DNA from: a candidate division TA06 bacterium B3_TA06
GTDB taxonomy: Bacteria; Hydrothermota; Tepidihabitantia; B3-TA06
Length of the DNA stretch: 64,000 nucleotides
Reading direction: 5' to 3'
NCBI GenBank assembly: GCA_005223075.1
Contig: NJBO01000003.1
Location: 9,902-73,901 of the forward strand
In this document: piece after piece, positions 4,393 through 63,452 of the stretch
Layout: the number at the start of each line of letters is the position of its first letter
Position numbering within the stretch: position 1 is the first letter of the stretch
The notes under the pieces: model-generated
Told to the model about the DNA's origin: nothing
Databases searched by the model: none
Seen by the model: only the letters and a program-made list of their open reading frames with translations
Translations under genes and position numbers: made by a program

Positions 4393-4428
4393 GGGGTCCC
4401 CGCAAGAGCGCGAAGCGATCTTGTGGGG
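4393..4428 (+). repeat. R1 hairpin repeat (GGGGTCCCCGC...GTGGGG family)
   Basis: ggggtccccgcaagagcgcgaagcgatcttgtgggg; one of 8 copies with conserved termini and variable internal stem. Confidence 0.7.
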
Positions 4429-4526
4429 TAAAAAAAAAGCTGGTCAAAAGGTAGTCAAAAGCTGGACAAAAGATGGTCAGAAGTTGGACAAAATTAGAGT
4501 GATTTGGGAAGTTCTCTGGGTTTTTT

Positions 4527-4646
4527 GTCATTGCGAGGTTGCTCGGAGCAACCGAAGCAATCTATTACCTTCGGATTGGGTTGCGAGAAGGAAATGCTCC
4601 TTTGATTGAGATTGCTTCGACTTCTGGGGGAAGTCTCGCAATGACA
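4527..4646. repeat. R7 MITE-like element with 11-bp terminal inverted repeats GTCATTGCGAG/CTCGCAATGAC
   Basis: TIRs at 4527-4537 and 4634-4644; second copy at 46172-46280 shares the TIRs and internal ttgagattgcttc. Confidence 0.6.
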
Positions 4647-4689
4647 CCCCCTCTTTAATTCTCCCCCATCAAGGGGGAGGTAATTATAT

Positions 4690-4730
4690 GCTCCTTTTTA
4701 CCTAGCGGTAAAAAGATCGCAGTATAGAAC
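4690..4730 (+). repeat. R8 hairpin repeat (GCTCCTTTT-variable hairpin-AAAAGATCGCAG)
   Basis: gctcctttttacctagcggtaaaaagatcgcag; family has 5 copies with compensatory stem changes. Confidence 0.6.
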
Positions 4731-4737
4731 TGTCCTA

Positions 4738-4773
4738 GGGGTCCCCGCGGCGTTACGTAGTAACGGCGTGGGG
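4738..4773 (+). repeat. R1 hairpin repeat
   Basis: ggggtccccgcggcgttacgtagtaacggcgtgggg. Confidence 0.7.
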
Positions 4774-4780
4774 TAATAGT

Positions 4781-4864
4781 TCCCCCTCCCTTTGTGGACA
4801 GTGTGCCCCTTGGGGTGCTAACTTTACTGCACCCCATAGGGTAGGGGGATAAAGGGGGAGGGGA
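4781..4864 (-). repeat. R2 ~85-bp MITE-like element
   Basis: Reverse complement matches the copies at 10334-10428 and 59613-59697 (cccctccccctt.atccccctaccctatggggtgcagtaaa.ttggcaccccaaggggcac.ctgtccacaaagggagggggaac). Confidence 0.7.
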
Positions 4865-4977
4865 ATTTTAGACTGACGTACTATCATCTGTCTCCTCCCC
4901 CTTGATGGGGAAGGTGTTTTTCACCCCACGCGTTTACTTCGCAGCCGCGCGGGGAGCCCGAGGATAAAATCCATAGC

Positions 4978-5011
4978 TTCTGCGATCTTTTGCCCGCAGG
5001 GCAAAAGGAGC
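4978..5011 (-). repeat. R8 hairpin repeat (reverse orientation)
   Basis: cttctgcgatcttttgcccgcagggcaaaaggagc. Confidence 0.55.
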
Positions 5012-5071
5012 AATAGAACTACTTGACAACCCCTCAAGTTTGGCCTATATTATAACATAAACCAGCCCTTT

Positions 5072-8816: not shown

Positions 8817-9344
8817 ATGAAATTAGAATTGGCTCTTGAGGATGTTTCCCTTCCAGAGGGCATTCCAGTCGAAAGCCGTGAAGAATATCTCAAAAACAAT
8901 AAAGTCCTCATAGTATACTGTTGGTTAGAACCAACCGATTGGTCAACAATCAAGTATGAAACACAACAAAGAATCCTAGCTAGATTAAGTCTAGGTAATC
9001 AAACGCCCTATGAAACAGGATTTACAATGCAGGCCTTTCCAGCCCCGATCTACAGACTACTCGAAAACTATCTAAATGAAGAAAACTTAGGATTTATCTA
9101 TGGTGTAAAGGAATGGAAAATGGCTCCAATCTCAAGATTCAAGCTAGTAAGTATAGAAGAAAATACTCTGATTGGCAAATGCGTTCTTCCTCTATCCATA
9201 CGAGAAGACTTAGATTTTGACTGGAAAACACTTAAAGAGGGTATCGAAACGAGAATCAATAATTCTCTCGATGAAATTCGAGAAGGTGTAGTGAACTACG
9301 TAAGCACTTGTGACCACTTTAGTGATCTCTTCAGGAATGGTTGA
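8817..9344 (+). CDS. Hypothetical protein, compositionally atypical (AT-rich)
   Basis: 175-aa ORF with SD aaaggagga; markedly lower GC than flanking nadE and dedA-like genes; no recognisable motif. Confidence 0.4.
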   Translation: MKLELALEDVSLPEGIPVESREEYLKNNKVLIVYCWLEPTDWSTIKYETQQRILARLSLGNQTPYETGFTMQAFPAPIYRLLENYLNEENLGFIYGVKEWKMAPISRFKLVSIEENTLIGKCVLPLSIREDLDFDWKTLKEGIETRINNSLDEIREGVVNYVSTCDHFSDLFRNG

Positions 9345-10172: not shown

Positions 10173-10333
10173 ATCCCAACCAACCTTTGTGGTGCAGGCT
10201 CTCCAGCCTGCGCAAAACAGCGATCTTTATCCTTTCGGATCGCAAGCGTCGTCCGTAGGACGAAGGGAGCATTGAGTCTCCTCCTCCTTGATAGGGGAGG
10301 TGGCCGATCCAATGGATCGGACGGAGGAGGTGT

Positions 10334-10428: not shown

Positions 10429-10554
10429 TATTATCTCGAATAAGCAAACATTCCTAAATTCCCATTGCGAACTTTTCTGTGAAGGAGAAAAGGAGCATAA
10501 ATCCGCAGATTGGAACTCCTTTCAGTCGTTCTCCTTCGGAACGCAGATCCGTAG

Positions 10555-14129: not shown

Positions 14130-14165
14130 GGGGTCCCCGCGCGATAGTAAAGCGACCGCGTGGGG
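14130..14165 (+). repeat. R1 hairpin repeat
   Basis: ggggtccccgcgcgatagtaaagcgaccgcgtgggg, 5 nt after helicase stop. Confidence 0.7.
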
Positions 14166-14360
14166 CGTTAAATGTAGTGCGAACCTTCAGGTTCGCCAAG
14201 AAAGCAAGCGAGACTAAAGTCTCGCACTACATGCTAATCTGGAACAGGCAGGAGTGTCTGTTCTCTTAAATGTAATTGTATGGGCTGCTATTTGAAGTGC
14301 AGCAGTTTTCCAAAAGTCCGTTATCCTGTACCATATGCGGGCCGGTCTAAAGACCGGCCC
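14166..14360. repeat. REP-like hairpin cluster (TAAAG-loop family)
   Basis: atgtagtgcga...tcgcactacatg inverted repeat, gcgagactaaagtctcgc (14208-14225), gggccggtctaaagaccggccc (14339-14360); same family as hairpins around the IS200-like gene at 54790. Confidence 0.55.
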
Positions 14361-14404
14361 CTACGAAATCCCCCAAATATCAAGGCCCGATGTATTTCTC
14401 GTAG

Positions 14405-26085: not shown

Positions 26086-26295
26086 CGGAGCAATCTAGCA
26101 GAAAGTAAGGGCGCCTTTAGGGCATCTAAGACTCCAAAAACGACGAGTGGGAAGGGGCTACCCCAACCAAATTCTTGATATCATTTTTTTGATTTATAAC
26201 AAAAGCTCTTGACAATCATAAAATTTTGTGCATCATTAGGGATAGAAGGAAGATTTATGTCCTTCTTTCAGAAACCTTCAACCCAAGGAGGAGAT

Positions 26296-26745
26296 ATGCA
26301 TAACTCCAAAAAACTCATACTCGCCGTCCTGGCAGTTATCCTGCTGCTGGGAGCCACTCCGGCGTTCGCTCAGCTGGGCGGAACCTGGGAGGGCATAGGT
26401 AGGGGCGAAGCTTACCCGCCCTGTCACCCTCCTATACACCCCTGGCAGACGTGGAAGGGCGAGATCCCGGCCACCCAAGATGTCTTCACCGGCGAATGGT
26501 GGGATGCGGACGGCAATCACGGCACATTCAAGGGCGTGGTGGAGTTCTCACCCATTCCTGAGATAGCATACGCTGAAGGCGAATGGACATGGTACGACCC
26601 CACAGGCCACTCTCAGCAACCAATAGTCGGCGGCAAGTTCAAGATGACGTTCTACATCCTGGAAAAAAGATGCGAAGGCACCTGGACATCCATCTGGCCC
26701 TCACCCAGCGATCACGGCACCATGAAAGGCTGGAAGGTAGATTAA
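26296..26745 (+). CDS. Array paralog 1: small Sec-secreted Trp/Cys-rich protein, subtype A
   Basis: 150 aa; start placed at ATG 26296 (SD aaggagg); signal MHNSKKLILAVLAVILLLGATPAFA; PPCHPPIHPWQTWKGEIP ... GTMKGWKVD. Confidence 0.7.
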   Translation: MHNSKKLILAVLAVILLLGATPAFAQLGGTWEGIGRGEAYPPCHPPIHPWQTWKGEIPATQDVFTGEWWDADGNHGTFKGVVEFSPIPEIAYAEGEWTWYDPTGHSQQPIVGGKFKMTFYILEKRCEGTWTSIWPSPSDHGTMKGWKVD

Positions 26746-26809
26746 CCTTCCATGAAACTCGGAGGGGCAGATTTCTGCCCCTCCTCACAGATCACAAAAG
26801 GAGTAAGAG

Positions 26810-27253
26810 ATGAGTAACTTCAAAAAACTCACGATCGCCGCGCTCGCGGTGATCTTTCTGATCGGAGCAACGCCTATTGCCGCCGAGCTCGACGGCATCT
26901 GGGAAGGCCATGGCGATGGAACCTGGCGGCCACCAAGCGGCATAGTACCTGTTCACCCCTGGCAAACCTGGAAAGGCACCGTCGAGAACGGACGCTTTTA
27001 CGGGGAGTGGTACGATAGCACAGGCGCCCACGGCAGATTCCAAGGCGTCATACCATCCTTAACCCAAGAGGTAGCATACTGCGAAGGCTTCTGGACGTGG
27101 GTAGATGAAGGTTGCGACCCACCACGGGAGATCACCGTAGGTCCGTTCGAGATGGATTTTCACTACGTCATTGAAACATGCAGGGGCGCATGGTGGAGTG
27201 AACTTACCGCCGTCCCGCAAGGACACATGTGGGGCCGAAGGACAGGCCCGTAG
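26810..27253 (+). CDS. Array paralog 2, subtype B-like
   Basis: 147 aa; signal MSNFKKLTIAALAVIFLIGATPIAA; HPWQTWKGTVENG ... CEGFWTWVD. Confidence 0.7.
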   Translation: MSNFKKLTIAALAVIFLIGATPIAAELDGIWEGHGDGTWRPPSGIVPVHPWQTWKGTVENGRFYGEWYDSTGAHGRFQGVIPSLTQEVAYCEGFWTWVDEGCDPPREITVGPFEMDFHYVIETCRGAWWSELTAVPQGHMWGRRTGP

Positions 27254-27326
27254 GGCATAATAGAAACCAAGCAGGGGGCGGGGTTACTCGCCCCCTCATA
27301 AACCTAAAACCTCAAAGGAGGAACAA

Positions 27327-27773
27327 ATGAGCAACTCCAAAAAACTCATAATCGCCCTCGCCGTGATCTTCTTGGTTGGGGCAACACCTGCCTTGGCCGA
27401 TCTCGATGGTATTTGGGAAGGCTATGGTAATGGCAGCTACTACTTACCTGACGGTAGCATCATCTACCCATGGCAAAGCTGGAACGGTACTGTCGAGAAT
27501 GGAGTCTTCAGCGGCTCCTGGGAAGATGACGAAGGCAACTCCGGCGGTTTCACAGGAGGCATCACATGCTTCTTCACTACTGTCCCACCCTCATATACGT
27601 TTGCCGGCTGCGAAGGAACCTGGACGTGGATTGACCCCAGCGGCTTAGAACCCATTGAACTAGGGAGCTTCTGGATGACGTTCAACGTAGACCTTGACAC
27701 CTGCTGGGGCGAATGGTTGCCTTACACTAATGCTCAGGGTGGAACCATGTGGGGCTGGAGGATAGGAGACTGA
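27327..27773 (+). CDS. Array paralog 3, subtype B
   Basis: 148 aa; YPWQSWNGTVENG ... CEGTWTWID ... GGTMWGWRIGD. Confidence 0.7.
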   Translation: MSNSKKLIIALAVIFLVGATPALADLDGIWEGYGNGSYYLPDGSIIYPWQSWNGTVENGVFSGSWEDDEGNSGGFTGGITCFFTTVPPSYTFAGCEGTWTWIDPSGLEPIELGSFWMTFNVDLDTCWGEWLPYTNAQGGTMWGWRIGD

Positions 27774-27846
27774 GGCATAATAGAAACCAACCAGGGGGCG
27801 GGGTTACTCGCCCCCTCATAAACCTTAAACCAAAAGGAGGAACAAA

Positions 27847-28302
27847 ATGAGTAACTCCAAAAAACTCCTCATCGCCCTGGCTGTGATACTTGCAGTCGGG
27901 GCAACGCCCCTCCTCGCACAACTTGAAGGACCGTGGGCAGGCAATGGCGAAGGAAGCTGCAAGACACCCACCGGAATCACTATCTACCCTTGGCAGGAGT
28001 GGGACGGCTTCGTGGAGAATGGAGCCTTCGACGGCAGTTGGTGGGACGGCGACAACGGCGGCAACTTTCACGGCGACATAATATCCATCAGCACCCCAGT
28101 CCCACCCGCGGAACCACATGACGTAGCATACTGTGAAGGCACCTGGACATGGGTAAATGACGAGGGGGAGGAGATATCTATGGGCCAGTTCTGGATGAAC
28201 TTTGACCTCCTCTACGGAACATGCGAAGGTGAATGGTGGCCTTGCAATCGCCCTGAGCCTTGGGGCCCGGGAATCATGTGGGGCTGGAGGATAGGAGACT
28301 GA
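27847..28302 (+). CDS. Array paralog 4, subtype B
   Basis: 151 aa; YPWQEWDGFVENG ... CEGTWTWVND ... IMWGWRIGD. Confidence 0.7.
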   Translation: MSNSKKLLIALAVILAVGATPLLAQLEGPWAGNGEGSCKTPTGITIYPWQEWDGFVENGAFDGSWWDGDNGGNFHGDIISISTPVPPAEPHDVAYCEGTWTWVNDEGEEISMGQFWMNFDLLYGTCEGEWWPCNRPEPWGPGIMWGWRIGD

Positions 28303-28375
28303 GGCATAATAGAAACCAAGCAGGGGGCGGGGTTACTCGCCCCCTCATAAACCTTAAACCTCAAAGGAGGAACAA

Positions 28376-28813
28376 ATGAGCACCCCAAAAAAAATCCTGC
28401 TAACCGCTTTGGCGGTGATCCTTTTACTAGGGGCCACGCCTATTGCCGCCCAGATCGCAGGAGTCTGGGAGGGCACCGGTAAAGGCGCAGCTTACCCGCC
28501 CTGCCACCTACCTATATATCCATGGCAGAAATGGATAGGCGAGATACCAAACTCTGAAGACGTCTTTTTCGGCGAGTGGAAAGACACCCTTGACAACCAC
28601 GGCAGATTCGAAGGCAAGCCTGCACCTTACTCCACTCCTGATGCGAAGGTGTTCAAAGGCTACTGGACCTGGGAAACCCCCGAAGGGATATTCAAAGGCG
28701 GCGAATTCACGATGACCTTTTACTTCTTGGAAGGCGAATGCAAGGGCACCTGGACATCCATCTGGCCTTCGCCGGGCAAGCTGGGAACCATGAGAGGCTG
28801 GAAGGTGCACTGA
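28376..28813 (+). CDS. Array paralog 5, subtype A
   Basis: 145 aa; PPCHLPIYPWQKWIGEIP ... GTMRGWKVH. Confidence 0.7.
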   Translation: MSTPKKILLTALAVILLLGATPIAAQIAGVWEGTGKGAAYPPCHLPIYPWQKWIGEIPNSEDVFFGEWKDTLDNHGRFEGKPAPYSTPDAKVFKGYWTWETPEGIFKGGEFTMTFYFLEGECKGTWTSIWPSPGKLGTMRGWKVH

Positions 28814-28880
28814 AGCATACAACCAACCAGGGGGCGGCCCTCCGCCCCCTATAAACCTTAAACCTCAAAGGAGGAACAAA

Positions 28881-29318
28881 ATGAGTAACCCCAAAAAACT
28901 CCTCATCGCCGCGCTTGCGGTGATCTTCCTGCTCGGCGCAACGCCCCTTGCCGCCGAGCTAGACGGGTTCTGGGCAGGAACTGGCACTGGCTGCTGCCAT
29001 CCAGAGTCCACCACCATCACCATATACCCCTGGCAGACATGGGACGGCTTCGTCGTGAACCACGAGATCTTTCACGGTGAGTGGCAAGATAGCTTAGGAC
29101 ACCAAGGCACCTTCGAAGGAAGAGTCGTCCAGATAGACTCAACCTATGCGGTTTTCGAAGGCACGTGGAGATGGACTGACCCCACCATACTCATAATCCC
29201 TCCTGTTATAGGCGAGTTCCATATGGACTTCGATCTTCTCACCCGCACCTGCCTGGGCGAATGGTTCTACCATGAGGACTACGGAACCATGCAAGGACAA
29301 AAACTGGAGACAAAATAA
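28881..29318 (+). CDS. Array paralog 6, divergent B-like
   Basis: 145 aa; GCCHPESTTITIYPWQTWDGFVVN ... GTMQGQKLETK. Confidence 0.7.
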   Translation: MSNPKKLLIAALAVIFLLGATPLAAELDGFWAGTGTGCCHPESTTITIYPWQTWDGFVVNHEIFHGEWQDSLGHQGTFEGRVVQIDSTYAVFEGTWRWTDPTILIIPPVIGEFHMDFDLLTRTCLGEWFYHEDYGTMQGQKLETK

Positions 29319-29393
29319 GAAAGAACAGACAAACCAACCAGGGGGCGGGGTTACTCGCCCCCTCATAAACCTTAAACCTCAAAGGAGGAACAA

Positions 29394-29834
29394 ATGAGCA
29401 CCCCAAAAAAAATCCTGCTAACCGGTTTGGCGGTAATCCTTTTACTAGGGGCCACGCCGCTTGCCGCCCAGATCGCAGGAAGATGGGAGGGTACTGGTAC
29501 AGGCGAAGCTTACCCGCCCTGCCACCCGCCTATACACCCCTGGCAGATCTGGATGGGCGAGATCCCGCTCACTCAGGATGTTTTCACAGGCGAATGGTGT
29601 GACGCGGACTGCAATCACGGCACCTTCAAGGGCGAGATAGCCCCTTTCTCAACTCCAGAGGAAGCATACTGTGAAGGTTATTGGACGTGGGATGATCCTT
29701 CCAGCCCGTCCATCATTGTAGGCCATTTCAAGATGACGTTCTACATCCTGGAAGGAATATGCGAAGGCACCTGGACATCCATCTGGCCATCGCCCAGCGG
29801 TCCCGGAACCATGAAAGGCTGGAAGATAGACTGA
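29394..29834 (+). CDS. Array paralog 7, subtype A
   Basis: 146 aa; PPCHPPIHPWQIWMGEIP ... GTMKGWKID; 5' end nearly identical at nucleotide level to paralogs 5 and 12. Confidence 0.7.
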   Translation: MSTPKKILLTGLAVILLLGATPLAAQIAGRWEGTGTGEAYPPCHPPIHPWQIWMGEIPLTQDVFTGEWCDADCNHGTFKGEIAPFSTPEEAYCEGYWTWDDPSSPSIIVGHFKMTFYILEGICEGTWTSIWPSPSGPGTMKGWKID

Positions 29835-29907
29835 GGTATACCTCGACAGACCATCAGGGGGCGGCCCTCCGCCCCCTTACAAACCTTAAACCAAAAGGAG
29901 GAACAAA

Positions 29908-30342
29908 ATGAGTAACTCCAAAAAACTCCTCATCGCCGCGCTTGCGGTGATCTTCCTCGCAGGGGCTACGCCTCTCGCCGCCCAGCTCGCAGGAGTCTGG
30001 GCAGGCACGGGCGAAGGCTGCTGCAGCCCTCCCGGAACTACCATCTACCCTTGGCAGACGTGGAAGGGTGAAATACCCAACAGCCAAGACGTGTTTTCCG
30101 GCAAGTGGTGGGACGCAGATAGCAACCGGGGCACCTTCCACGGAAAGATAATAATCTCCAGTGTCACCGAAGCATACTGCGAAGGTATCTGGAACTTAGA
30201 TGACCCTTCAGGGGCTTCAATCATTGGAGGTGATTTCAAGATGACATTCTACATCCTGGAAGGAACATGCGAAGGCACCTGGATATCCATCTGGCCCACC
30301 GCCTTACCCGCAACCATGAGAGGCTGGAAGGTAGAACCGTAA
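29908..30342 (+). CDS. Array paralog 8, A/B mosaic
   Basis: 144 aa; B-type signal peptide with A-type body (YPWQTWKGEIPNSQDVFSGKWWD ... TMRGWKVEP). Confidence 0.7.
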   Translation: MSNSKKLLIAALAVIFLAGATPLAAQLAGVWAGTGEGCCSPPGTTIYPWQTWKGEIPNSQDVFSGKWWDADSNRGTFHGKIIISSVTEAYCEGIWNLDDPSGASIIGGDFKMTFYILEGTCEGTWISIWPTALPATMRGWKVEP

Positions 30343-30406
30343 AGTCACAACCTAGGGGGCGGGCTTGTGCCCCCTCATAAACCTCAAACCTCAAAGGAGG
30401 AACAAA

Positions 30407-30856
30407 ATGCACAACTATAAAAAACTCATACTCGCCGCCCTGGCAGTTATCCTGCTGCTGGGAGCCACTCCGGCGTTCGCTCAGCTGGCCGGAACCTGGG
30501 AGGGCACTGGTAGGGGCGAAGCTTACCCGCCCTGCCACCCTCCTATACACCCCTGGCAAAACTGGATAGGCGAGATCCCGAACTCTCAGGATGTGTTTTT
30601 CGGCGAATGGTGGGACTCGGACTGCAATCACGGCACCTTCAAGGGCGAAATAGCCCCTTTCTCCACTCCAGAGGAAGTATACTGTGAAGGCGAATGGACA
30701 TGGTACGACCCCACAGGCTCCTCTCACCAACCAATAGTCGGCGGCAAGTTCAAGATGACGTTCTACATCCTGGAAGGAAGATGCGAAGGCACCTGGACCT
30801 CCATATGGCCATCGCCCAGCGAGCACGGAACCATGAGAGGCAGGAAGGTACACTGA
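30407..30856 (+). CDS. Array paralog 9, subtype A
   Basis: 149 aa; start placed at ATG 30407 after SD aaaggagg; ends GTMRGRKVH. Confidence 0.7.
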   Translation: MHNYKKLILAALAVILLLGATPAFAQLAGTWEGTGRGEAYPPCHPPIHPWQNWIGEIPNSQDVFFGEWWDSDCNHGTFKGEIAPFSTPEEVYCEGEWTWYDPTGSSHQPIVGGKFKMTFYILEGRCEGTWTSIWPSPSEHGTMRGRKVH

Positions 30857-30925
30857 ACCTTAACGCCGAGCGGGGACGGGTTTCCATCCCCGCTCGGGAT
30901 AAACCTTAAACCAAAAGGAGAAGCA

Positions 30926-31354
30926 ATGAGTAACTCCAAAAAGCTAATGCTCACCGCCTTGGCGGTGATCTTTCTGATCGGAGCGACGCCTCTCTTCGCC
31001 GATCTCGACGGCATCTGGGAAGGCTACGGCGAAGGAAGCTGCGAGACACCCGCTGGAACCATCATCTACCCCTGGCAAACCTGGAACGGAACCGTTGATG
31101 AATACGGGTACTTCTCCGGCGAGTGGGAAGACTCGGACGGCAATCAAGGCACCTTCGAAGGCTGCATGGCGTCCCTGAACCCCCCAGTCTGCCCGGGGGT
31201 ATGGACATGGAGAGACGATTCGAGTCTCGAACCCATCGAGATGGGCCTATTCCAGATGGTCTTTTACGAGGTCCAAGGAACATGCAACGGCGAATGGTGG
31301 CCGTACTCTGGCGCTCAGGGTGGAACCATGTGGGGCTGGAGTATAGGAGACTAA
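30926..31354 (+). CDS. Array paralog 10, subtype B
   Basis: 142 aa; YPWQTWNGTVDEYG ... GGTMWGWSIGD. Confidence 0.7.
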   Translation: MSNSKKLMLTALAVIFLIGATPLFADLDGIWEGYGEGSCETPAGTIIYPWQTWNGTVDEYGYFSGEWEDSDGNQGTFEGCMASLNPPVCPGVWTWRDDSSLEPIEMGLFQMVFYEVQGTCNGEWWPYSGAQGGTMWGWSIGD

Positions 31355-31425
31355 GGCATAATAGAAACCAACCAGGGGGCGGCCATCCGCCCCCACTTAA
31401 ACCCTAAACCTCAAAGGAGGAACAA

Positions 31426-31875
31426 ATGAGTAACCCCAAAAAAATCCTCATCGCCGCGCTTGCGGTGATCTTCCTCGCAGGGGCGACGCCGCTTCTTGCC
31501 CAACTCAACGGTACATGGGCGGGCGAAGGAGAAGGCGTTTGCTCTCCGCCTCCCCCTATACCTACCGACTTCCCCATCTATGCTTGGCAGAACTGGAAAG
31601 GTCTGGTTGAGGATAATGAAGTCTTCTACGGCGAGTGGTACGATAACCGCTGTAACAACGGCACCTTCAAAGGCGAGATCGTATTCGTAACTCCCGAGGA
31701 TGCATACTGCGAAGGCGAGTGGCACTGGTTCGACGAACGCTACGACCCTCCGCGTGTCTACTACATGGGACCGTTTTCGATGAAGTTCAAGCTGGAAGAA
31801 GCAATATGCTACGGTGAATGGCGGACTTACTACAGTAATGAGAGCGGAACCATGAAAGGAGAAAAGATAGACTGA
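31426..31875 (+). CDS. Array paralog 11, divergent
   Basis: 149 aa; FPIYAWQNWKGLVEDNEVFYGEWYD ... GTMKGEKID. Confidence 0.7.
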   Translation: MSNPKKILIAALAVIFLAGATPLLAQLNGTWAGEGEGVCSPPPPIPTDFPIYAWQNWKGLVEDNEVFYGEWYDNRCNNGTFKGEIVFVTPEDAYCEGEWHWFDERYDPPRVYYMGPFSMKFKLEEAICYGEWRTYYSNESGTMKGEKID

Positions 31876-31953
31876 GGATATACCGGGAAACCGGCTAACC
31901 CAGGGGGCGGGCTTCCGCCCCCTGATAAACCCTAAACCTCAAAGGAGGAACAA

Positions 31954-32400
31954 ATGAGCACCCCAAAAAAAATCCTGCTAACAGGTTTGGCGGTGATCCT
32001 TTTACTAGGGGCCACGCCGCTTGCCGCCCAGATCGCAGGCACATGGGAAGGCACCGGAACCAGCTGCTGCTGTCCACACCCGGGCACGATCATCTACCCC
32101 TGGCAGGCGTGGGTAGGTGAGATCCCCAACTCCCAGGACGTCTTCACCGGCGAGTGGAAAGACAGCCTCGACAACCGCGGCACATTCAAGGGCGAAATCC
32201 TCTGGATCAGCACCACCGTCGCCATCGCCAGAGGTTCCTGGTACTGGTTCGATCCTACCGGTCCCAGTCACGAACCGGTCTACGGAGGCGACTTCGAGAT
32301 GAAGTTCTACGTCTACGAGAGGGAGTGCACCGGCACCTGGACATCCATCTGGCTATCGCCCAGCGAACACGGAACCATGAGAGGCAGAAAGGTACACTAA
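31954..32400 (+). CDS. Array paralog 12, subtype A
   Basis: 148 aa; CCCPHPGTIIYPWQAWVGEIP ... GTMRGRKVH. Confidence 0.7.
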   Translation: MSTPKKILLTGLAVILLLGATPLAAQIAGTWEGTGTSCCCPHPGTIIYPWQAWVGEIPNSQDVFTGEWKDSLDNRGTFKGEILWISTTVAIARGSWYWFDPTGPSHEPVYGGDFEMKFYVYERECTGTWTSIWLSPSEHGTMRGRKVH

Positions 32401-32466
32401 ACCTAAAGCCGAGGGGGGCGCAAACCCGTCCCCCTCGGGATGAACCTTAAACCAAAAGGAGAAGCA

Positions 32467-32922
32467 ATGAGTAACTCCAAAAAGCTAATGCTCACCGCCT
32501 TGGCGGTGATCTTTCTGATCGGAGCAACGCCGCTCTTCGCAGAACTCGACGGCATCTGGGAAGGCTACGGCGAAGGAAGCTGCGAGACACCCGCTGGAAT
32601 CATCATCTACCCCTGGCAAACCTGGAACGGCAGCCTGGAGTCATGGCTCTTCACCGGCCACTGGCAAGACTTGGACGGCAGCTCCGGCGGCTTCCAGGGG
32701 GCCGTCATATCCCTCGCCAAATCCGTTGAACCGCCTTACCATACGGTTGCTCACTGCGAAGGAACCTGGACGTGGATGGATCCCAGCGGCTTAGAACCCC
32801 TCGAAATGGGTCCCTTCAATATGGAGTTCAATCTGGACATTGACACCTGCTGGGGCAACTGGTACTCCTATTCTAGCCCCGGAATTGGCGGAACCATGTG
32901 GGGCTGGAGGATAGGAGACTGA
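32467..32922 (+). CDS. Array paralog 13, subtype B
   Basis: 151 aa; start placed at ATG 32467; first ~45 codons and upstream intergenic region nearly identical to paralog 10. Confidence 0.7.
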   Translation: MSNSKKLMLTALAVIFLIGATPLFAELDGIWEGYGEGSCETPAGIIIYPWQTWNGSLESWLFTGHWQDLDGSSGGFQGAVISLAKSVEPPYHTVAHCEGTWTWMDPSGLEPLEMGPFNMEFNLDIDTCWGNWYSYSSPGIGGTMWGWRIGD

Positions 32923-32971: not shown

Positions 32972-32974
32972 AAA

Positions 32975-33012
32975 CCCCACACGGGCGCTTTACGTGCCCG
33001 TGCGGGGACCCC
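32975..33012 (-). repeat. R1 hairpin repeat (reverse orientation)
   Basis: ccccacacgggcgctttacgtgcccgtgcggggacccc. Confidence 0.65.
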
Positions 33013-34381: not shown

Positions 34382-34447
34382 TTACGCCTCCTTATTTGAT
34401 TGGCTGTGTATAATTCTCAGAATCGAGCGCTTGTCAAGCAATTTATA

Positions 34448-34483
34448 CCCCACGTCTTCACTTCGTGAAGCCGCGGGGACCCC
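34448..34483 (-). repeat. R1 hairpin repeat (reverse orientation)
   Basis: ccccacgtcttcacttcgtgaagccgcggggacccc. Confidence 0.65.
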
Positions 34484-34490
34484 GATTTTT

Positions 34491-34527
34491 GCTCCTTTTT
34501 GCCTTCGGCAAAAAGATCGCAAAGGAG
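34491..34527 (+). repeat. R8 hairpin repeat
   Basis: gctcctttttgccttcggcaaaaagatcgcaaaggag. Confidence 0.6.
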
Positions 34528-34642
34528 AAAAACACATTATCTCTGGGAATAAATCACTACGTCCTTCCGACTCCTGCGAATCAATTTCTCCGAGCCTCTA
34601 CAAGAAGGCGAAGCATTCGTTGTTTCGGCAAAAACTTCCTCC

Positions 34643-34674
34643 CTGCGATCTTTTCTCAGTATGAGAAAAGGAGC
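34643..34674 (-). repeat. R8 hairpin repeat (reverse orientation)
   Basis: ctgcgatcttttctcagtatgagaaaaggagc. Confidence 0.55.
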
Positions 34675-34719
34675 ATGTGAAAAACCGGGGCCGTGAGGCC
34701 CCGGCTCTTTGTGGTCTTT

Positions 34720-36135
34720 CTAGGGTCGGATGGTTAGAAAGTGCGTGTGCCCTCTACGGTTAATCTGGAAAAGGGCCACGTCTGCCTTCTCCAGATCACC
34801 TTTCAGTCTCTTTAACTCTTTGACGTTAGAGATGAGGATTTTGTTGACTTTAATGATTACGTCTCCGACCCTGATTCCTGCCCTGTCGGCCAGACTGCCG
34901 GGTTCGACATCCTCCACCAGAACCCCATGCTTGAGATCATATTCCTTCTTGATTCTGTCACTTATGTCTTTGACCGTTATGCCAAGGATAGATGTCTTGG
35001 TCCCTTTCTCCTCTTCGGGTACAGGCTCGATGCGGGTGGAGAGTTCCTCGCGGCCAGGGCGTTCGGCAAGCCTCAGGGTTATCTTCCTGCGTTTGCCTTC
35101 ACGGATAATATCAAGGTCTACCTTTGTGCCAGGTGCAGTGCTTGCGGCAAGCCAGCGAAGCTGATCTACCGAGGTTATCTTTTCTCCGGCAAACGAGGTG
35201 ATTAGGTCGCCGTCCTCCAGACCCGCCTTCTCGGCCGGTGAGTCGGGAACAACCCTGGTTACAAAAACCCCTTCTTCCTCGATATCCATTGCTTCAAGCA
35301 CCTCAGGTTTGACTTCCTCGAGGTATATCCCCATATAGCCGCGTGAGATCTTGCCGTGCTTGATAAGCTCGCCTGCGATATCGGCGGCCATGTCAGAAGG
35401 AATGGCGAACCCTATACCTGAGTTCGCAAGCCCGTTCGTACGGATAGCGGTGTTGATGCCGATGACCTCGCCATTGATGTTGCATAATGCTCCGCCCGAG
35501 TTGCCCGGGTTGATTGCCGCGTCGGTCTGCAGGAAGTTCTGGTAGCTTGGACCGCCATATAGGAGCACGTTACTGCGTCCCTTGGCACTTACCACGCCCA
35601 CTGTCACGGTTTGCTCAAGGTTGTAGGGGTTGCCGATGGCAATCGCCCAGTCGCCGACCTTGACCTCTTCAGAGCTGGCAAACTTCGCTACCGGGAGGGG
35701 GTCCTTGGCTTTGATCTTGAGAACGGCGAGGTCGGTCTCAGGGTCTGTGCCGATGACTTCCACGTCTTTGCCGGAGAACTCCCTGCCGTCTGACAACTTT
35801 ACTCCGATATCCTTAGCGCCATCAACCACGTGGTTGTTTGTCAGTATGTATCCTCGTTCATCGAAGATCACGCCGGAGGCGGCACCCGGAACAAACCGGG
35901 GGGCACGTGGAGCAGGGATGTCGAAGTCCCAAAATTCAAAGAACTTACGAAGTTCTTCCGGGACACTCTCCTCGTCGAAATCGAACCCCTGAACGAATGG
36001 AACCTCCTTTGTCACGGTGATACCGACCACCGCCGGCGCCACCTTATCCACCACCTCGCTGAATCCTTCAAGCGGTACAGCAGAGTTGAGTGCTGCCGAT
36101 GAGATAAGGATCAAAATGCTTAGAACTCTTCTCAT
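34720..36135 (-). CDS. htrA: HtrA/DegP-family periplasmic serine protease with two PDZ domains
   Basis: 471 aa; signal peptide; trypsin-like core GYILTNNHVV ... GNSGGAL; SD aaggagg. Confidence 0.9.
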   Translation of the reverse strand: MRRVLSILILISSAALNSAVPLEGFSEVVDKVAPAVVGITVTKEVPFVQGFDFDEESVPEELRKFFEFWDFDIPAPRAPRFVPGAASGVIFDERGYILTNNHVVDGAKDIGVKLSDGREFSGKDVEVIGTDPETDLAVLKIKAKDPLPVAKFASSEEVKVGDWAIAIGNPYNLEQTVTVGVVSAKGRSNVLLYGGPSYQNFLQTDAAINPGNSGGALCNINGEVIGINTAIRTNGLANSGIGFAIPSDMAADIAGELIKHGKISRGYMGIYLEEVKPEVLEAMDIEEEGVFVTRVVPDSPAEKAGLEDGDLITSFAGEKITSVDQLRWLAASTAPGTKVDLDIIREGKRRKITLRLAERPGREELSTRIEPVPEEEKGTKTSILGITVKDISDRIKKEYDLKHGVLVEDVEPGSLADRAGIRVGDVIIKVNKILISNVKELKRLKGDLEKADVALFQINRRGHTHFLTIRP

Positions 36136-44157: not shown

Positions 44158-44245
44158 AGTGCAATGACACAGTCATTGCAGTCCAAAAGATTTTATGGAG
44201 TGCAACGAGCGTCTCGTTGCTTGCGACAACACGGTTGTCGCACTC
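44158..44245. repeat. REP-like palindromic cluster upstream of RAYT gene
   Basis: tgcaatgacacagtcattgca and ggagtgcaacgagcgtctcgttgcttgcgacaacacggttgtcgcactcc (outer stem enclosing two inner hairpins). Confidence 0.7.
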
Positions 44246-44262
44246 CAGAATAGCGTTGTATA

Positions 44263-44817
44263 ATGAGCGATGATTTAATCTACAAGCAGCACAAACACAA
44301 TCCACCTCATCTGTTCATCCCCAAAGCCAAATACTTCATCACCGCTTCTACATACCAGAAAAAGCCTTTTCTAAGTTCTCATGAGAGCAAATCGCGTCTC
44401 CTGGAATCCATAATTAAAGGATGCGATAAATCCAACTGGTTATTGGAAGATTGGGTTATACTCGACAATCATTATCACCTGATGCTGCAAGCCCCTGAGG
44501 AGGATCCTGATTTATCCAAAATGATCAGTGAAATCCATCGCTTTACCGCTCTCTGGATAAAGAAAAATGCCTTGGAAGCGAAATCGGCTAAAAGAATCTT
44601 CTGGAACTACTGGGATAGATGTATTACTCACGAACGGTCTTACTTTGCCAGACTAAACTACATTTACTTCAACCCGGTAAAGCATGGATATGTCCCAAAT
44701 CCTGAAGATTATCCGCATGGGAGTTATTATTACAGAATAAAGACTGAAGAAGAACGCCTCAAAAAACTACAACAAGATTATCCTTGGGGTCGTGTCAATG
44801 TCAATGACGATTTCTAG
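44263..44817 (+). CDS. REP-associated tyrosine transposase (RAYT, IS200-like Y1 HUH family)
   Basis: 184 aa; HUH motif NHYHLML and YIYFNPVKHGYV region; flanked on both sides by REP-like palindromes. Confidence 0.7.
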   Translation: MSDDLIYKQHKHNPPHLFIPKAKYFITASTYQKKPFLSSHESKSRLLESIIKGCDKSNWLLEDWVILDNHYHLMLQAPEEDPDLSKMISEIHRFTALWIKKNALEAKSAKRIFWNYWDRCITHERSYFARLNYIYFNPVKHGYVPNPEDYPHGSYYYRIKTEEERLKKLQQDYPWGRVNVNDDF

Positions 44818-44910
44818 CTTGACGCAACAACACGGTTGTCGTACTCCAAAAACCCACTCTGGAGTGCAACGAGCGCCTCGTTGCATGCAACAACACGGTT
44901 GTTGCACTCC
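44818..44910. repeat. REP-like palindromic cluster downstream of RAYT gene
   Basis: cttgacgcaacaacacggttgtcgtactcc and ggagtgcaacgagcgcctcgttgcatgcaacaacacggttgttgcactcc. Confidence 0.7.
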
Positions 44911-44924
44911 AAAATAATCTGTAA

Positions 44925-45988: not shown

Positions 45989-45991
45989 TCA

Positions 45992-46026
45992 CCCCACGAC
46001 TTTGCTCACAAAGTCGCGGGGACCCC
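45992..46026 (-). repeat. R1 hairpin repeat (reverse orientation)
   Basis: ccccacgactttgctcacaaagtcgcggggacccc. Confidence 0.65.
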
Positions 46027-54537: not shown

Positions 54538-54589
54538 TTTGGTCTTGAGCCCATCGGGTTGTAAGCTCTGGTGGTCAGTGAGATTAGTA

Positions 54590-54723
54590 GCGCAGACCTT
54601 TAGGTCCGCCTTTATTTTTAGCGAGGCTAATACCCTATGAGCGCATAAAGCGCTCAAGGGGCACGCTGAGCCTCGCACTACATGCTGTGTGCTATACATG
54701 TAGTGCGGGACTTTAGTCCCGCT
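54590..54723. repeat. REP-like hairpin cluster upstream of IS200-like gene
   Basis: gcagacctttaggtccgc, ccctatgagcgcataaagcgctcaaggggcacgctg, cgcactacatg...catgtagtgcg, gcgggactttagtcccgc. Confidence 0.65.
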
Positions 54724-54789
54724 AAATAAAACTCAACGAAAAGGAAAGGTTAGGTTGACAAAAAACATGGTCTGATTTACTCTAACCCA

Positions 54790-55248
54790 ATGAGGAAGAA
54801 GCGAATACGCCTCAAGTCTTTCGATTACCTGGGTGCTTACAGATACTTCGTGACCATCTGCACGCATAACCAGAAGCAGGCATTCACCAGCGAGGGGCGC
54901 GTAAGAACCGTCTCTGACATTCTGAAAGAAACCGCTGAGCAGGAAGGATTCACGGTCTGGGCCTGGTGTTTCATGCCGGATCATTTGCACATCCTTGTCG
55001 AAGGTGTTAATGAGAAATCCGATCTCCGCCGGTTCATGAAGATATTCAAACAGAAAAGCGGCTATCAGTGGAAGCAGATTGAAGGCGAAAAGTTATGGCA
55101 GGAAGATTACTTCGAGCGCATCCTGCGGCGGGAAGAAACCACCCCAAAGGTCATAGAATACATTCTCAACAACCCTGTGCGGCGTGGTTTGGTTTCTTCT
55201 CCGGAGGAGTACCCCTTCTCCTATTCTCTTTTAGACAACAACATGTAG
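54790..55248 (+). CDS. IS200-like Y1 HUH transposase (RAYT-type)
   Basis: 152 aa; HUH motif DHLHILV, YILNNPVRRGLV region; flanked by REP-like hairpins; stop codon lies within the conserved catgtag REP terminus. Confidence 0.7.
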   Translation: MRKKRIRLKSFDYLGAYRYFVTICTHNQKQAFTSEGRVRTVSDILKETAEQEGFTVWAWCFMPDHLHILVEGVNEKSDLRRFMKIFKQKSGYQWKQIEGEKLWQEDYFERILRREETTPKVIEYILNNPVRRGLVSSPEEYPFSYSLLDNNM

Positions 55249-55441
55249 CGCGGGACTTCAGTCCCGCAGCGAGTCTAAAGACTCGCTCTACACGAATATA
55301 ATCTGGAATTGTGATCAGTCAAGGTAGAACATGTAGCGTGAACCCCAGAGTGCCCCCTTTGGACATTAGGTTCGCAGCGAGTCTAATACCCTATGAGCGC
55401 ATAAAGCGCTCAAGGGATACGCTGAGACTCGCACTACATGT
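55243..55441. repeat. REP-like hairpin cluster downstream of IS200-like gene
   Basis: gcgggacttcagtcccgc, gcgagtctaaagactcgc, ccctatgagcgcataaagcgctcaagggatacgctg, tcgcactacatg. Confidence 0.65.
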
Positions 55442-57251: not shown

Positions 57252-57621
57252 CTATATCCTCCTGGGATTCAGCTCAAGCCTCTTACAATACGTATCTTAC
57301 TCAGGGAAACGGGAATTGCAAGTGGTCGGCGTCGTGATTACTCTACTGTTTAAATCGGCGCCAACTCGTCAGGTTTGAGTGGCACTCGTCACCAAAAAGA
57401 TGGTCAAATGCTGGTCAAAAGCTGGTCAAAAGCTACCCAAAAGATGGACAAAAGCGCGACTGCGTCGCAATTACAGATTGAAGATTCAAGATTGAAAGAT
57501 TTAAAGATAGCTCCGCAAGCGTCGCCCTCCGGTGCAAATATCAAAATGCAAAGCAAAGTTAAGGGGGCTGACAGCCGTCGGCCGTGAGCTGTAAGCTGTT
57601 TGCCGTGAGCTCCTAGGGGGG

Positions 57622-57649
57622 TTGACAAGCAGCTTCTTTGGAATAAATT
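57622..57649 (+). promoter_or_regulatory. Putative promoter TTGACA-N16-TAAATT ending 5 nt before ATG 57655
   Basis: ttgaca 57622-57627 (the ORF-track TTG start codon lies in this -35); weak -10. Confidence 0.35.
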
Positions 57650-57654
57650 TAGAT

Positions 57655-59493
57655 ATGAGTTTAAGAAGAGAGCTTTTATTTCTCATTTCACTTTCATTTG
57701 GGCTCTTCATTTTTTGTGGGGAAAGGGAACTGACACCCCAAGAGATTTTTAGGTCAGATTCGTTTTATACCGAGGCTTTGCGTTATGAAAAATTTGGAAA
57801 TTTGGATAGTGCAAGGGTTTTATGTGAAAACGCCTTAAGAATAAACCCTAAACATTACGATGCTCAGAGAAAATTAGCTGCAATTTACTTCGTTACTCAA
57901 GATTACCCCCAGGCTGAAGGGACATACCGTAGTTGTGTTGAATTAAAGCCAGATGATTTTTGGACTCAGTATAACCTAGGCTTGGCCTTACTTTACCAAG
58001 GTAAATTCTCTGAAGCCGCATTAGCAATTCGGAAGGCCATCGAGATTGACTCTACCCGCATTTTTGCATTTATTCACCTTACTGGTGCTTTAATTGGTAA
58101 AGGCGATGTTGTTAACGCAGAAATCGAAATAAGAAAAGCCATGAGTATTGAGCCGCAAAACGTAGATTTTCGACTTCATCATGCCTGGATATTATTTGTA
58201 AAACAAGATTTCGATAGAATGGAAGAAGAGGTTGATAATGTTTTGCTCTCTAATCCAGATATTACGTTTGCCCATTATTTGCGAGCTATAATTTGGTTAG
58301 TCAGAAATAAACTAGATAGAGCTGAGGTCGAATTCAAAAAAGCTATCGAATTGGAGCCAAATTTACCTCAGTTACACGCTCTACTTGGAGGGGTGAAACT
58401 TAAAACGGGTAATTTGGGGGAAGCGGAAGAAGAATTAAAACGGGCGTTGGAGTTGGGTGATACTCACCCTTCAACATACAATAATCTTGCTACCCTTTAT
58501 GAAAGGCAAGGTCGAACCCAAGAAGCAGAGGAAACATACATAAAAGCCATTGAATTAAGCAGTGATGACCCTACGCCTTACAACAATTTAGCATTTCTTC
58601 TATTTTACAAAGGTGAGTTAGACAGTTCATCAGTTGTTTTTTCAAAAGCCTTGACTTTAGCGAAAGAGGGCGAAGCACCCAGCATAAAAGATATTGCAGA
58701 GGATTTTACTAAAGTGTTACTCATTAAGGGCTGGGAAAATTGTATATTAGGCGATTTAGATGAAGCAACACTTGAGATTGATTCAGCAATTTCAGTGCTT
58801 AATAATTACGAAGTGCGTTCAAGAGGGAGTGAGAAGATACTTAAAGTTAATGCTAATACTCTGAGAGGTATAGTTTATCTTAAACAAAGAAAACCGGGCC
58901 AAGCTACCGAAAAGTTCGCCAAAGCCTTGGAAAACGATCCGAGAGATACTGTGGCCAGATATAACCTTGCCTTAGCTTATTTAATGGCTGGCCGTTTCGA
59001 TAATGCAGAATTGGCAGCCTCAGCTGCTATTTATCTAGCTGGTGAAAAAGGGTACCCGGAAGGAGAAAGTCTCTTAACTTACATTAAGAAAAAGAGGGAG
59101 GAAAGAAATGCAGGGTTTCGTTTTCATTGGATTCAATTAGGTGCCCTTGTACTAGTCGTCGGTTGGCTTGCCGCTTCTATGTGTGTTTTCTTTCATAAAA
59201 AAATAGGGAAAACTAAAAAAGGTCAGGAATTCAGAAGGCGATGGGCATATACATTTATGTTGATTTGGATTGCTTTGGCATTCATTTTCTTTATCTTCCC
59301 ATATACGAAGATTGTCACTTTCCCTACTGGCGGACAAGTCGAATTAGACCAAGATAGAATAAGACTCCCACAAGAAATAAGCCCTGATTTCTCACGTATT
59401 GCACAGCCCCAAATAATGACTTTTCCTGAAGAACCAAAATTCCAAATCGATATGGTTCTCGATTTAAGGAGTTACGCACCCCAATCTCCTTGA
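57655..59493 (+). CDS. TPR-repeat protein with C-terminal transmembrane segments
   Basis: Start placed at ATG 57655; multiple 34-aa TPR-like repeats; two hydrophobic helices near C-terminus; AT-rich relative to surroundings. Confidence 0.7.
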   Translation: MSLRRELLFLISLSFGLFIFCGERELTPQEIFRSDSFYTEALRYEKFGNLDSARVLCENALRINPKHYDAQRKLAAIYFVTQDYPQAEGTYRSCVELKPDDFWTQYNLGLALLYQGKFSEAALAIRKAIEIDSTRIFAFIHLTGALIGKGDVVNAEIEIRKAMSIEPQNVDFRLHHAWILFVKQDFDRMEEEVDNVLLSNPDITFAHYLRAIIWLVRNKLDRAEVEFKKAIELEPNLPQLHALLGGVKLKTGNLGEAEEELKRALELGDTHPSTYNNLATLYERQGRTQEAEETYIKAIELSSDDPTPYNNLAFLLFYKGELDSSSVVFSKALTLAKEGEAPSIKDIAEDFTKVLLIKGWENCILGDLDEATLEIDSAISVLNNYEVRSRGSEKILKVNANTLRGIVYLKQRKPGQATEKFAKALENDPRDTVARYNLALAYLMAGRFDNAELAASAAIYLAGEKGYPEGESLLTYIKKKREERNAGFRFHWIQLGALVLVVGWLAASMCVFFHKKIGKTKKGQEFRRRWAYTFMLIWIALAFIFFIFPYTKIVTFPTGGQVELDQDRIRLPQEISPDFSRIAQPQIMTFPEEPKFQIDMVLDLRSYAPQSP

Positions 59494-59528
59494 CTTCCCT
59501 CTTTAATCTCCGCCAAATCACTTAACTA

Positions 59529-59564
59529 CCCCACAACTCCGCTTCGCGTAGTCGCGGGGACCCC
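59529..59564 (-). repeat. R1 hairpin repeat (reverse orientation)
   Basis: ccccacaactccgcttcgcgtagtcgcggggacccc. Confidence 0.65.
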
Positions 59565-63340: not shown

Positions 63341-63350
63341 GAAATTTAGT

Positions 63351-63382
63351 GCTCCTTTCCGCCTTCGACGGAAAGATCGCAG
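63351..63382 (+). repeat. R8 hairpin repeat
   Basis: gctcctttccgccttcgacggaaagatcgcag. Confidence 0.55.
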
Positions 63383-63452
63383 AAGCAATTCCTAGCACCT
63401 GGTAGTTTCTAGGATGATTCGTGGAGATATTGAAAGCTAAGAATCTATACCT

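Follow-up and report, generated by a model that had tools for sequence, protein, structure and literature searches.

Results

R8 is a repeat of approximately 40 nt in which fixed arms enclose a hairpin tip that varies in sequence while remaining paired. On balance, we favour the view that it is a lineage-specific, REP-like palindrome which serves as a strand-specific single-stranded DNA (ssDNA) hairpin for a putative partner, probably of the HUH/Y1 type. The repeat was studied in a 64-kb stretch of DNA from an uncultured WOR-3/Stahlbacteria bacterium (the window, taken at its full length) and in related loci, which are referred to by their L numbers.

The R8 unit and its copies in the window

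The unit reads cTGCGATC-TTTT, a variable stem of 4-6 bp with a loop of 3-5 nt, then AAAA-GGAGCA and an A/T-rich tail. Across approximately 150 copies, conservation starts abruptly at the C-T before GCGATC; on the 3′ side an A follows GGAGC in 94% of copies and leads into the tail, T T W A W T, which has faded by 7 nt after GGAGC, and the flanks outside the unit carry no information. The arms form an imperfect inverted repeat with a GA/A internal loop: TGC pairs with GCA, and UCUUUU pairs with AAAAGG via an invariant T.G pair. The stem has 13 pairs. We refer to the strand with CTGCGATC...GGAGCA as forward. The element is asymmetric, the window copies giving 36-59 bits on the scoring strand and 8-20 bits on the opposite strand in a covariance model, and intact copies folded as ssDNA have z-scores of -3.1 to -4.6. 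The cores comprise 122-130 distinct sequences, the commonest of which was found just five times. Two coding or regulatory roles for the unit itself were considered and rejected. A small ORF with a conserved ATG on the GCTCC strand is broken in frame by the varying tip length. A promoter within R8 (TTNNNN-N17-tail) matches at 10/12 positions in one copy, but only approximately 25% of copies have, as second base of the -10-like hexamer, the A that a promoter requires.

A covariance model built from 74 related copies identified six R8 copies in the 64 kb, all with E ≤ 2e-7, and no other convincing match; the pattern GCTCCTTTT-N8-25-AAAAG matches the window five times, compared with 0.03 times expected from shuffles. 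A first-pass annotation had listed five copies, at 4690, 4978, 34491, 34643 and 63351. All five are present; a sixth, decayed copy at 10463-10500 (+) had been overlooked. The copy that the annotation was centred on (34487-34524, -; 55.3 bits) reads tTGCGATC-TTTT-TGCC-GAA-GGCA-AAAA-GGAGCA, folds as ssDNA with -11.6 kcal/mol (z -3.4) and is identical to its ortholog in E44_bin36 (L026). The + strand at 34491-34527 is GCTCCTTTTTGCCTTCGGCAAAAAGATCGCAAAGGAG. The end of this copy had been given as GCAG and is in fact GATCGCAA, and the central palindromes had been listed in an order that does not match their coordinates (ttgccttcggcaa belongs to 34491 and ttacctagcggtaa to 4690). Together with the copy at 34641-34678 (+; tip CTCA-GTA-TGAG; 55.6 bits) it forms an inverted pair, the CTGCGATC ends of which point at each other.

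Of the remaining copies, that at 4686-4724 (-; tip TACC-GCTA-GGTA; 47.7 bits) was placed by alignment within a larger multi-copy composite of hairpin, R1 repeat, spacer, R8 and hairpin. The copy at 4978-5015 (+; tip GCCC-GCA-GGGC; 58.8 bits) has, 11 nt beyond its GGAGC end, a promoter-like TTGACA-N17-TATATT at 5023-5051. Similarly, the GGAGC end of the copy at 63347-63384 (-; tip CGTC-GAA-GGCG; 52.7 bits) lies 10 nt from the promoter-like site of dnaE (63340-63313, -; assigned by Pfam). The arms of this copy are TTTC/GAAA, a small correction to the annotation, and its single C.A mismatch on the + strand is T.G on the opposite strand. In the decayed copy (35.8 bits) GAAC replaces GATC, the pairing of the tip is incomplete and the fold z is just -1.4; E44_bin36 has an intact R8 (L116 4164-4196) in the matching intergenic region, a match made by position and not by alignment. 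A possible rearranged second R8 remnant lies at 10216-10272 (+), CAGCGATCTTT...TCGTCC-GTA-GGACGA-AGGGAGCA. It has approximately 20 extra bases past the 5′ arm, and the model match is limited to 10249-10263 (10.3 bits) with no full copy.

The inverted pair sits between two genes. On one side, an R1 repeat (34447-34483, -), GGGGTCCCCGCG-hairpin-CGTGGGGT, is inserted between R8 34487-34524 and the promoter-like site (34437-34410) of an AIM24-family gene. On the other side, the intrinsic-terminator hairpin (34685-34704, -) of an htrA-like gene (34720-36135, -) is followed on the - strand by TTTTTCACA and then directly by R8 34641-34678. A segment of approximately 150 nt near 34680, present in L026 and L115, is missing from the window; it is bounded by a 13-nt direct repeat, AAAAACCGGGGCC, that equals the left arm of the htrA-like terminator.

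Covariation and turnover of the tip

The annotation had claimed compensatory change around fixed flanks, a claim that depends on statistical support for the covariation. This was checked by alignment of 74 equal-length, non-identical R8 copies, and support was found. Paired cells make up 97.9% of the total, compared with 86.5% after shuffling (0/500 shuffles as high), a control that overstates significance because R8 copies are paralogs, and 46-60% with slid partners, a control that is independent of the paralogy problem, as is the spectrum of pair types. Double-change cells number 104, whereas 29.6 are expected. Each of the four tip pairs occurs as three to four Watson-Crick types (one pair is CG in 30 copies, GC in 26, UA in 11 and AU in 3), and the T/A tract shows rare covariation too, from UA to CG. 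An exchange in situ points the same way: at the sites orthologous to 34641-34678 in E44_bin36 (L026) and RS_17_4 (L115) the tip is CTCC-GCA-GGAG, in surroundings that are 96-98% identical, so that the window copy differs by a C-G to A-T exchange and a GCA to GTA loop which keeps the GNA form. The claim of compensatory change is thus borne out by both controls, by the pair types and by this ortholog.

Changes of this kind are rare. Among 17 candidate orthologous R8 pairs across species, tips are identical in approximately half, including pairs whose flanks have diverged or undergone rearrangement, and where both 40-nt flanks are conserved the tips are identical in 6/6 pairs (0 differences in 68 nt). 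The idea that tips are hypermutable in general was therefore rejected; every locus retains its own tip. Apart from the window case at 34641-34678, tip changes are seen only alongside neighbouring rearrangement: differing tips at the same place accompany neighbouring insertions or rearrangements in L024/L100, L084/L118/L078 and L037/L090. Stepwise compensation and conversion of one copy by another are therefore equally likely. The arms are 93.5% conserved across orthologs and the flanks approximately 77%, but the former figure is inflated, 21/32 positions being fixed by the exact search pattern with which the loci were fetched, and we do not rely on it.

Distribution

A scan of 185,579 species genomes with a 21-base exact R8 pattern gave at least 120 stretches. 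Of these at least 120 listed stretches, 111 come from eight WOR-3/Stahlbacteria MAG species (RS_17_4, CSMAG_1024, MAG095, Zod_Metabat.887, E44_bin36, CSMAG_461, RBin_337 and Bin.72), and the 111 listed loci hold at least approximately 155 further copies. Nine single matches among those listed fall in unrelated taxa, most with long or unpaired spacers, and are about as many as expected by chance. Among the matches listed, R8 is essentially restricted to WOR-3/Stahlbacteria. One genuine copy was found on one IMG/VR contig, and this single copy gives no sign of a phage origin. No description of repeats was found in literature mentioning WOR-3/Stahlbacteria.

The window is 84-98% identical to contig SOJW01000020 of E44_bin36. 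Several differences and expansions were noted in passing. A 175-aa ORF at 8817-9344 (+), with no Pfam match, is missing at the orthologous position in E44_bin36 (L116), where approximately 92 nt of repeats part the flanking genes. At 26209-32922 (+) the window has a tandem array of approximately 13 paralogous genes of about 145-180 aa with signal-peptide-like N-termini and the recurring motifs YPWQxW, GEWxD, HGTFxG and CEGxWTW; the one member tested has no Pfam match, and the array is also expanded in E44_bin36 (L026). Two intergenic arrays (4412-4504 and 57372-57475), each of approximately six phased 11-bp repeats GNTGGNCAAAA, lie upstream of smpB in one case and of the gene at 57622-59493 in the other; their phasing is that of curved DNA or iterated binding sites.

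Position relative to genes

The annotation had proposed a test for association with gene ends. By crude ORF calling, which underlies all the context statistics, R8 faces 149 gene 3′ ends and 100 gene 5′ ends, the 3′ ends being the commoner neighbours; R8-bearing regions are convergent in 38 cases and divergent in 12, and the 22/163 copies that fall in called ORFs are mostly near the ORF ends. In L043, L105 and L110 the repeat is translated as the last 15-20 codons of a gene (e.g. ...CSFSPAEKRSQEKER followed by the stop). In L098 and L005 the repeat block is flanked by a diverged second copy of the 3′ end of the gene, which gives the appearance of a C-terminus duplicated on either side of an insertion.

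R8 has different neighbours on its two sides. Beyond the GGAGCA tail the next feature follows closely. In 20-23 copies, all of them GCTCC-first, a convergent gene (ORFs of at least 120-150 aa) has its stop codon 1-6 nt from R8, and in 18/149 copies TTGAC(A/T) begins 6-13 nt past GGAGC, a spacing to which there is almost never a counterpart on the opposite side. The CTGCGATC side is most often bordered by a pyrimidine-rich run, in many cases the tail of a terminator; 12 copies lie 7-16 nt past a strict terminator hairpin with its T-run. A dedicated promoter-upstream element was rejected as a description of all R8, since only 12% of the 149 copies are followed by a -35 hexamer at +6 to +13, compared with 15% that border on a stop codon and 18% that adjoin R1. 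The one-sidedness may be traced to the unit itself: its tail gives TAA in the reverse reading as well as A/T-rich promoter-upstream sequence, and the other arm has no stop in any frame. The simplest reading is that R8 inserted in the few permissive A/T-rich spots of compact intergenic regions; selection would then have kept the least harmful orientations.

No target-site duplication was found, flank k-mer matches never exceeding the permutation expectation (best z 2.8 in 252 tests). Neighbouring copies are arranged directly (18), tail-to-tail (15) or head-to-head (14) at scattered spacings, with no preferred doublet geometry. A clean filled site with an empty counterpart was not found for R8 by itself, as orthologous regions with differences are mosaics of several repeats, and its mobility is therefore something that we infer. 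No recurrent gene family lies beside R8 in the approximately 800 kb around about 150 copies in the listed loci.

These positions could also mean that R8 is a boundary DNA element selected by the host, such as a site for a nucleoid or regulatory protein or an UP-element-like promoter module, which is not kept by transposition. E. coli BIMEs bind IHF and gyrase, and UP elements lie at roughly -38 to -55, the interval that the A-tract and A/T-rich tail of R8 would span (about -38 to -55) where the -35 hexamer follows. The one-sided spacing of this hexamer (18/149 at +6 to +13; 5023-5051 and 63340-63313 in the window) could point to a host function and so speaks against the REP-like reading; the persistence of copies at orthologous sites across species with diverged flanks and the fact that no transposase association was found in the listed loci are further points for a host-selected element. 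However, most copies have no adjoining promoter, 23 abut the stop codons of convergent genes, R1 insertions of approximately 45 nt are tolerated between R8 and the -35 hexamer, decayed copies exist and the conservation measured is biased by the way in which the loci were fetched. A double-stranded site would, moreover, leave both the pairing covariation and the strand-biased GNA loops (see below) unexplained. We regard a host-selected element as possible but doubtful.

R1, composite repeats and RAYT genes

The annotation had reported that R8 often adjoins R1 in composite blocks, which our counts and the aligned composites confirm: the GGGG(T/A)CCCC head of R1 starts 6-11 nt after GGAGC in 27/149 copies, compared with approximately 0.2 expected from its density. 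The R1 family itself, GGGGTCCCCGC-variable hairpin-G(T/C)GGGG(T/C), likewise combines a paired tip of variable sequence with arms that are fixed, and a G.T pair is conserved on one of its strands; window copies lie at 4393-4429, 4738-4774 and 14130-14166 on the + strand and at 59528-59564, 45991-46026, 34447-34483 and 32974-33012 on the - strand. One R1 beside R8 in E44_bin36 (L026) has no counterpart at this site either in RS_17_4 (L115) or in the window, and is therefore an R1 insertion polymorphism. At several loci and in several genomes R8 is also carried inside a larger composite repeat. This composite, of more than 200 nt (window 4600-4900, L033, L037, L086 and L090), consists in order of a C-rich hairpin, an inverted R1, a spacer TAGGACAGTTCTATA, R8 and a hairpin CCTCCCCCTTGATGGGGGAGG. 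L037 and L090, from the same MAG, agree almost exactly in the composite yet have unrelated R8 tips; in L090 the R1 loop is lengthened by an insertion of 21 nt.

Two intact RAYTs (REP-associated tyrosine transposases) are encoded in the window; they score above the NCBIfam NF047646 cut-off and have the HUH motif and the tyrosine. The first (44263-44817, +; NF047646, 109 bits) is flanked at 44190-44250 and 44820-44915 by GGAGTGC-tagged hairpins, GGAGTGCAACGAGCGYCTCGTTGC and TGCGACAACACGGTTGTCGCACTCC. In contigs with the identical protein the gap to the next gene is 45, 108 or 148 nt, a difference that may reflect how many repeats lie beside this RAYT. The second (54790-55248, +; NF047646) is flanked by GTAG-tagged REPs of the form GTAG(C/T)GC-stem-TTYAG-stem; REPs of this family are located at 54585-54725, 55244-55440, 14176-14230 and 14330-14365, and their stems vary with compensating changes (GGGAC, GAGTC, GAACC, CAGACC). 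Two intact RAYTs with their own REP families in 64 kb indicate that the genome supports REP-like elements. Neither RAYT is flanked by R8, each having another repeat family at its sides, and tblastn gave no match to either in the approximately 800 kb around R8 copies in the listed loci, which are part of each genome. A profile search with both RAYTs returned 439 homologs.

The REP-like reading thus has several observations against it: in the listed approximately 800 kb no RAYT or recurrent gene lies beside R8, there is neither a tag nor a doublet spacing, and 122-130 tips with no master sequence do not resemble REPINs that have been active recently. Three features lie outside the explanation that we favour: the missing enzyme, the coupling of one side of R8 to promoters, stop codons and R1, and the replacement, now and then, of an entire tip. 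Alternatively, R8 would be a separate class of strand-specific ssDNA hairpin, distinct from the RAYT-type REPs and kept by a putative Stahlbacteria-specific factor, with fixed recognition arms, an exchangeable G+C-rich tip and an A/T-rich 3′ tail that acts as a preferred landing site for R1. The exchangeable tip is based on the L037/L090 composites with their unrelated tips and on the ortholog of 34641-34678 with its three-base change. We consider this class improbable.

DNA or RNA

Most R8 loops have three bases and are closed by a C-G pair. On the forward strand the distinct cores include 30 GNA triloops and 7 of the complementary TNC type (p = 2e-4). The d(C-GNA-G) motif is a classic DNA mini-hairpin of very high stability. 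In RNA, stable hairpins tend to have GNRA or UNCG loops, neither of which is enriched in R8. G-U accounts for 4/24 non-Watson-Crick cells in the 74 copies, the share expected without any special tolerance. In tandem gene pairs, again by crude ORF calls, 30 copies are oriented with and 28 against the genes, i.e. there is no bias. The whole window has no Rfam 15 match at the gathering score, and around the 34491 copy only sub-threshold matches at chance level were obtained. No U-tract follows the hairpin on either strand. An intrinsic terminator was rejected because on both strands a T-run precedes and an A-run follows the hairpin, and the two runs pair together; genuine terminators adjoin R8 as separate hairpins. 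The strand bias of the GNA loops, the lack of G-U excess and of orientation bias and the placement of many copies outside likely transcripts favour a DNA-level hairpin, and as far as can be judged from sequence features the evidence points to a strand-specific DNA hairpin rather than an RNA motif.

For these reasons, and because many copies, located directly beyond intrinsic terminators or 8-13 nt ahead of a -35 hexamer, lie outside transcription units, and because R8 shows C-GNA-G triloops in place of GNRA or UNCG loops and no Rfam match, the annotation's suggestion of a small RNA motif is disfavoured. A more specific version would make R8 an mRNA hairpin which, past the stop codon, stabilizes the 3′ end or acts as a brake on translation termination and which, in reverse orientation, modulates initiation through a Shine-Dalgarno sequence (AAGGAG). 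One arm does contain AAGGAG, gene 3′ ends are over-represented beside R8, a stop codon precedes 20-23 copies by 1-6 nt, always GCTCC-first, and for other bacteria it has been proposed that REPs act at the RNA level (Di Nocera et al., 2013; PMC3733652). Against it, R8 as a whole has no preferred direction with respect to transcription, several copies are positioned after an intrinsic terminator or ahead of a promoter, a U-tract is lacking on both strands, and G-U pairs, loops and the Rfam search speak as above. The A/T-rich tail, which gives TAA on that side only, offers another explanation of the stop-codon asymmetry. An RNA hairpin therefore seems to us distinctly unlikely.

A folded-DNA site for a site-specific recombinase, resembling an integron attC, would share with R8 conserved outer boxes, a structure-only centre that varies in sequence and length yet stays paired (the general logic of attC) and strand-specific features, but we judge it highly improbable because no integrase is found among the best 25 Pfam families of window proteins, copies occur in both orientations at irregular spacing without cassette arrays, the flanks lack the attC core-site motifs RYYYAAC and GTTRRRY, and copies hold the same orthologous positions across species. 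The annotation's structured recombination site is disfavoured by the differing flank sequences of R8, by the missing same-orientation cassette arrays and by these stable sites. Its interpretation therefore stands with respect to the structure, the true compensation and the R1 composites, and neither a recombination site nor a small RNA is the best fit.

Discussion

Proposed mechanism and implications

In the REP-like reading that we prefer, R8 would be a miniature REPIN-like unit of approximately 40 nt, whose imperfectly inverted arms, TGC-GA-TCTTTT and AAAAGG-A-GCA, enclose a short G+C-rich stem that is free in sequence while paired and usually capped by a C-GNA-G triloop. We infer that R8 acts as an ssDNA hairpin on the CTGCGATC...GGAGCA strand, that it has been mobile and that it has a protein partner, for which the unpaired or irregular conserved bases of the arms may be the determinants of recognition or cleavage in trans. 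The likeliest partner would be an HUH/Y1 (RAYT-type) enzyme encoded elsewhere in the genome. R8 would have spread without target-site duplication to A/T-rich boundary spots (past terminators, upstream of -35 hexamers, on or beside stop codons), and the copies would then have been inherited vertically for a long time, their tips rarely altered, by compensatory substitution or by conversion.

R8 is ordinary in kind but cleanly defined. It adds a well-defined, covariation-supported repeat family to the candidate phylum WOR-3/Stahlbacteria, which is known largely from MAGs, and could be used as a lineage marker for binning. Together with R1 and the GTAG REPs it explains the mosaic intergenic regions of these genomes and the assembly breaks there. 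With two intact RAYTs and at least four hairpin-repeat families, the window is a compact test bed for the hairpin specificity of RAYTs. Should no RAYT recognize R8, it would be an abundant palindrome without a known mobilizing enzyme, like the CGTC repeats.

Comparison with known systems

MITEs such as the Correia elements of Neisseria are, like R8, small non-coding repeats at gene boundaries that can adjoin promoters. They have terminal inverted repeats flanked by a target-site duplication, which R8 lacks; R8 is also much shorter, and its tip is variable where the body of a MITE is conserved. With integron attC sites R8 shares fixed outer boxes, a variable paired centre and presumed recognition via the folded single strand. 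In contrast to attC, R8 has boxes that differ in sequence and keeps its orthologous positions, the best 25 Pfam families of window proteins included no integrase, and R8 does not form same-orientation arrays around promoterless cassettes. The likeness to the subterminal hairpins of IS200/IS605 elements is closer. These too are strand-specific and imperfect, with conserved bases at the foot; IS200/IS605 and REP-type elements, like R8, make no target-site duplication, and the Y1 HUH enzymes of IS200/IS605 belong to the same superfamily as the two RAYTs of the window. R8 differs from them in having no gene, one hairpin instead of distinct left and right ends, and no target tetranucleotide that we could find.

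GTAG and CGTC are the tags of two large REP super-families, and REP-like families without either tag and without a dedicated transposase are known, with examples listed in Mycobacterium, Deinococcus, Bordetella, Brucella and cyanobacteria (Di Nocera et al., 2013; PMC3733652). R8 resembles these untagged stem-loops in being a small palindrome with no terminal tetranucleotide and no known dedicated transposase; it is set apart by its apparently unrelated sequence and, among the matches listed, by its restriction to WOR-3/Stahlbacteria.

REPINs consist of conserved arms around a spacer that keeps its hairpin by compensatory changes (Bertels and Rainey, 2011; PMC3116915). R8 differs from REPs and REPINs in that it has no GTAG or CGTC tag (its ends are CTGCGATC and GGAGCA, and the GTAG REPs of the window are a different family), its lower stem is A/T-rich and conserved, it has no dominant master sequence and no RAYT was found beside any listed copy. 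Its unit is a single 40-nt hairpin, whereas a REPIN is a doublet of 70-110 nt with two inverted REPs at a characteristic short spacing, an arrangement not seen in R8; the lone hairpin mimics the REPIN layout on a smaller scale. R8 nevertheless agrees with REPs in the broad sense, as a short imperfect palindrome (20-40 bp) with a stem-loop that occurs in many copies, is extragenic and lies mostly downstream of coding regions. It further shares with REPs and REPINs hundreds of extragenic copies with a preference for gene 3′ ends, arms conserved around a compensating paired segment, insertion sites without target-site duplication, long vertical persistence and a host genome that encodes RAYTs. 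R8 is therefore best classed as a new, lineage-specific addition to the REP-type repeats already known, and not as a new kind of element.
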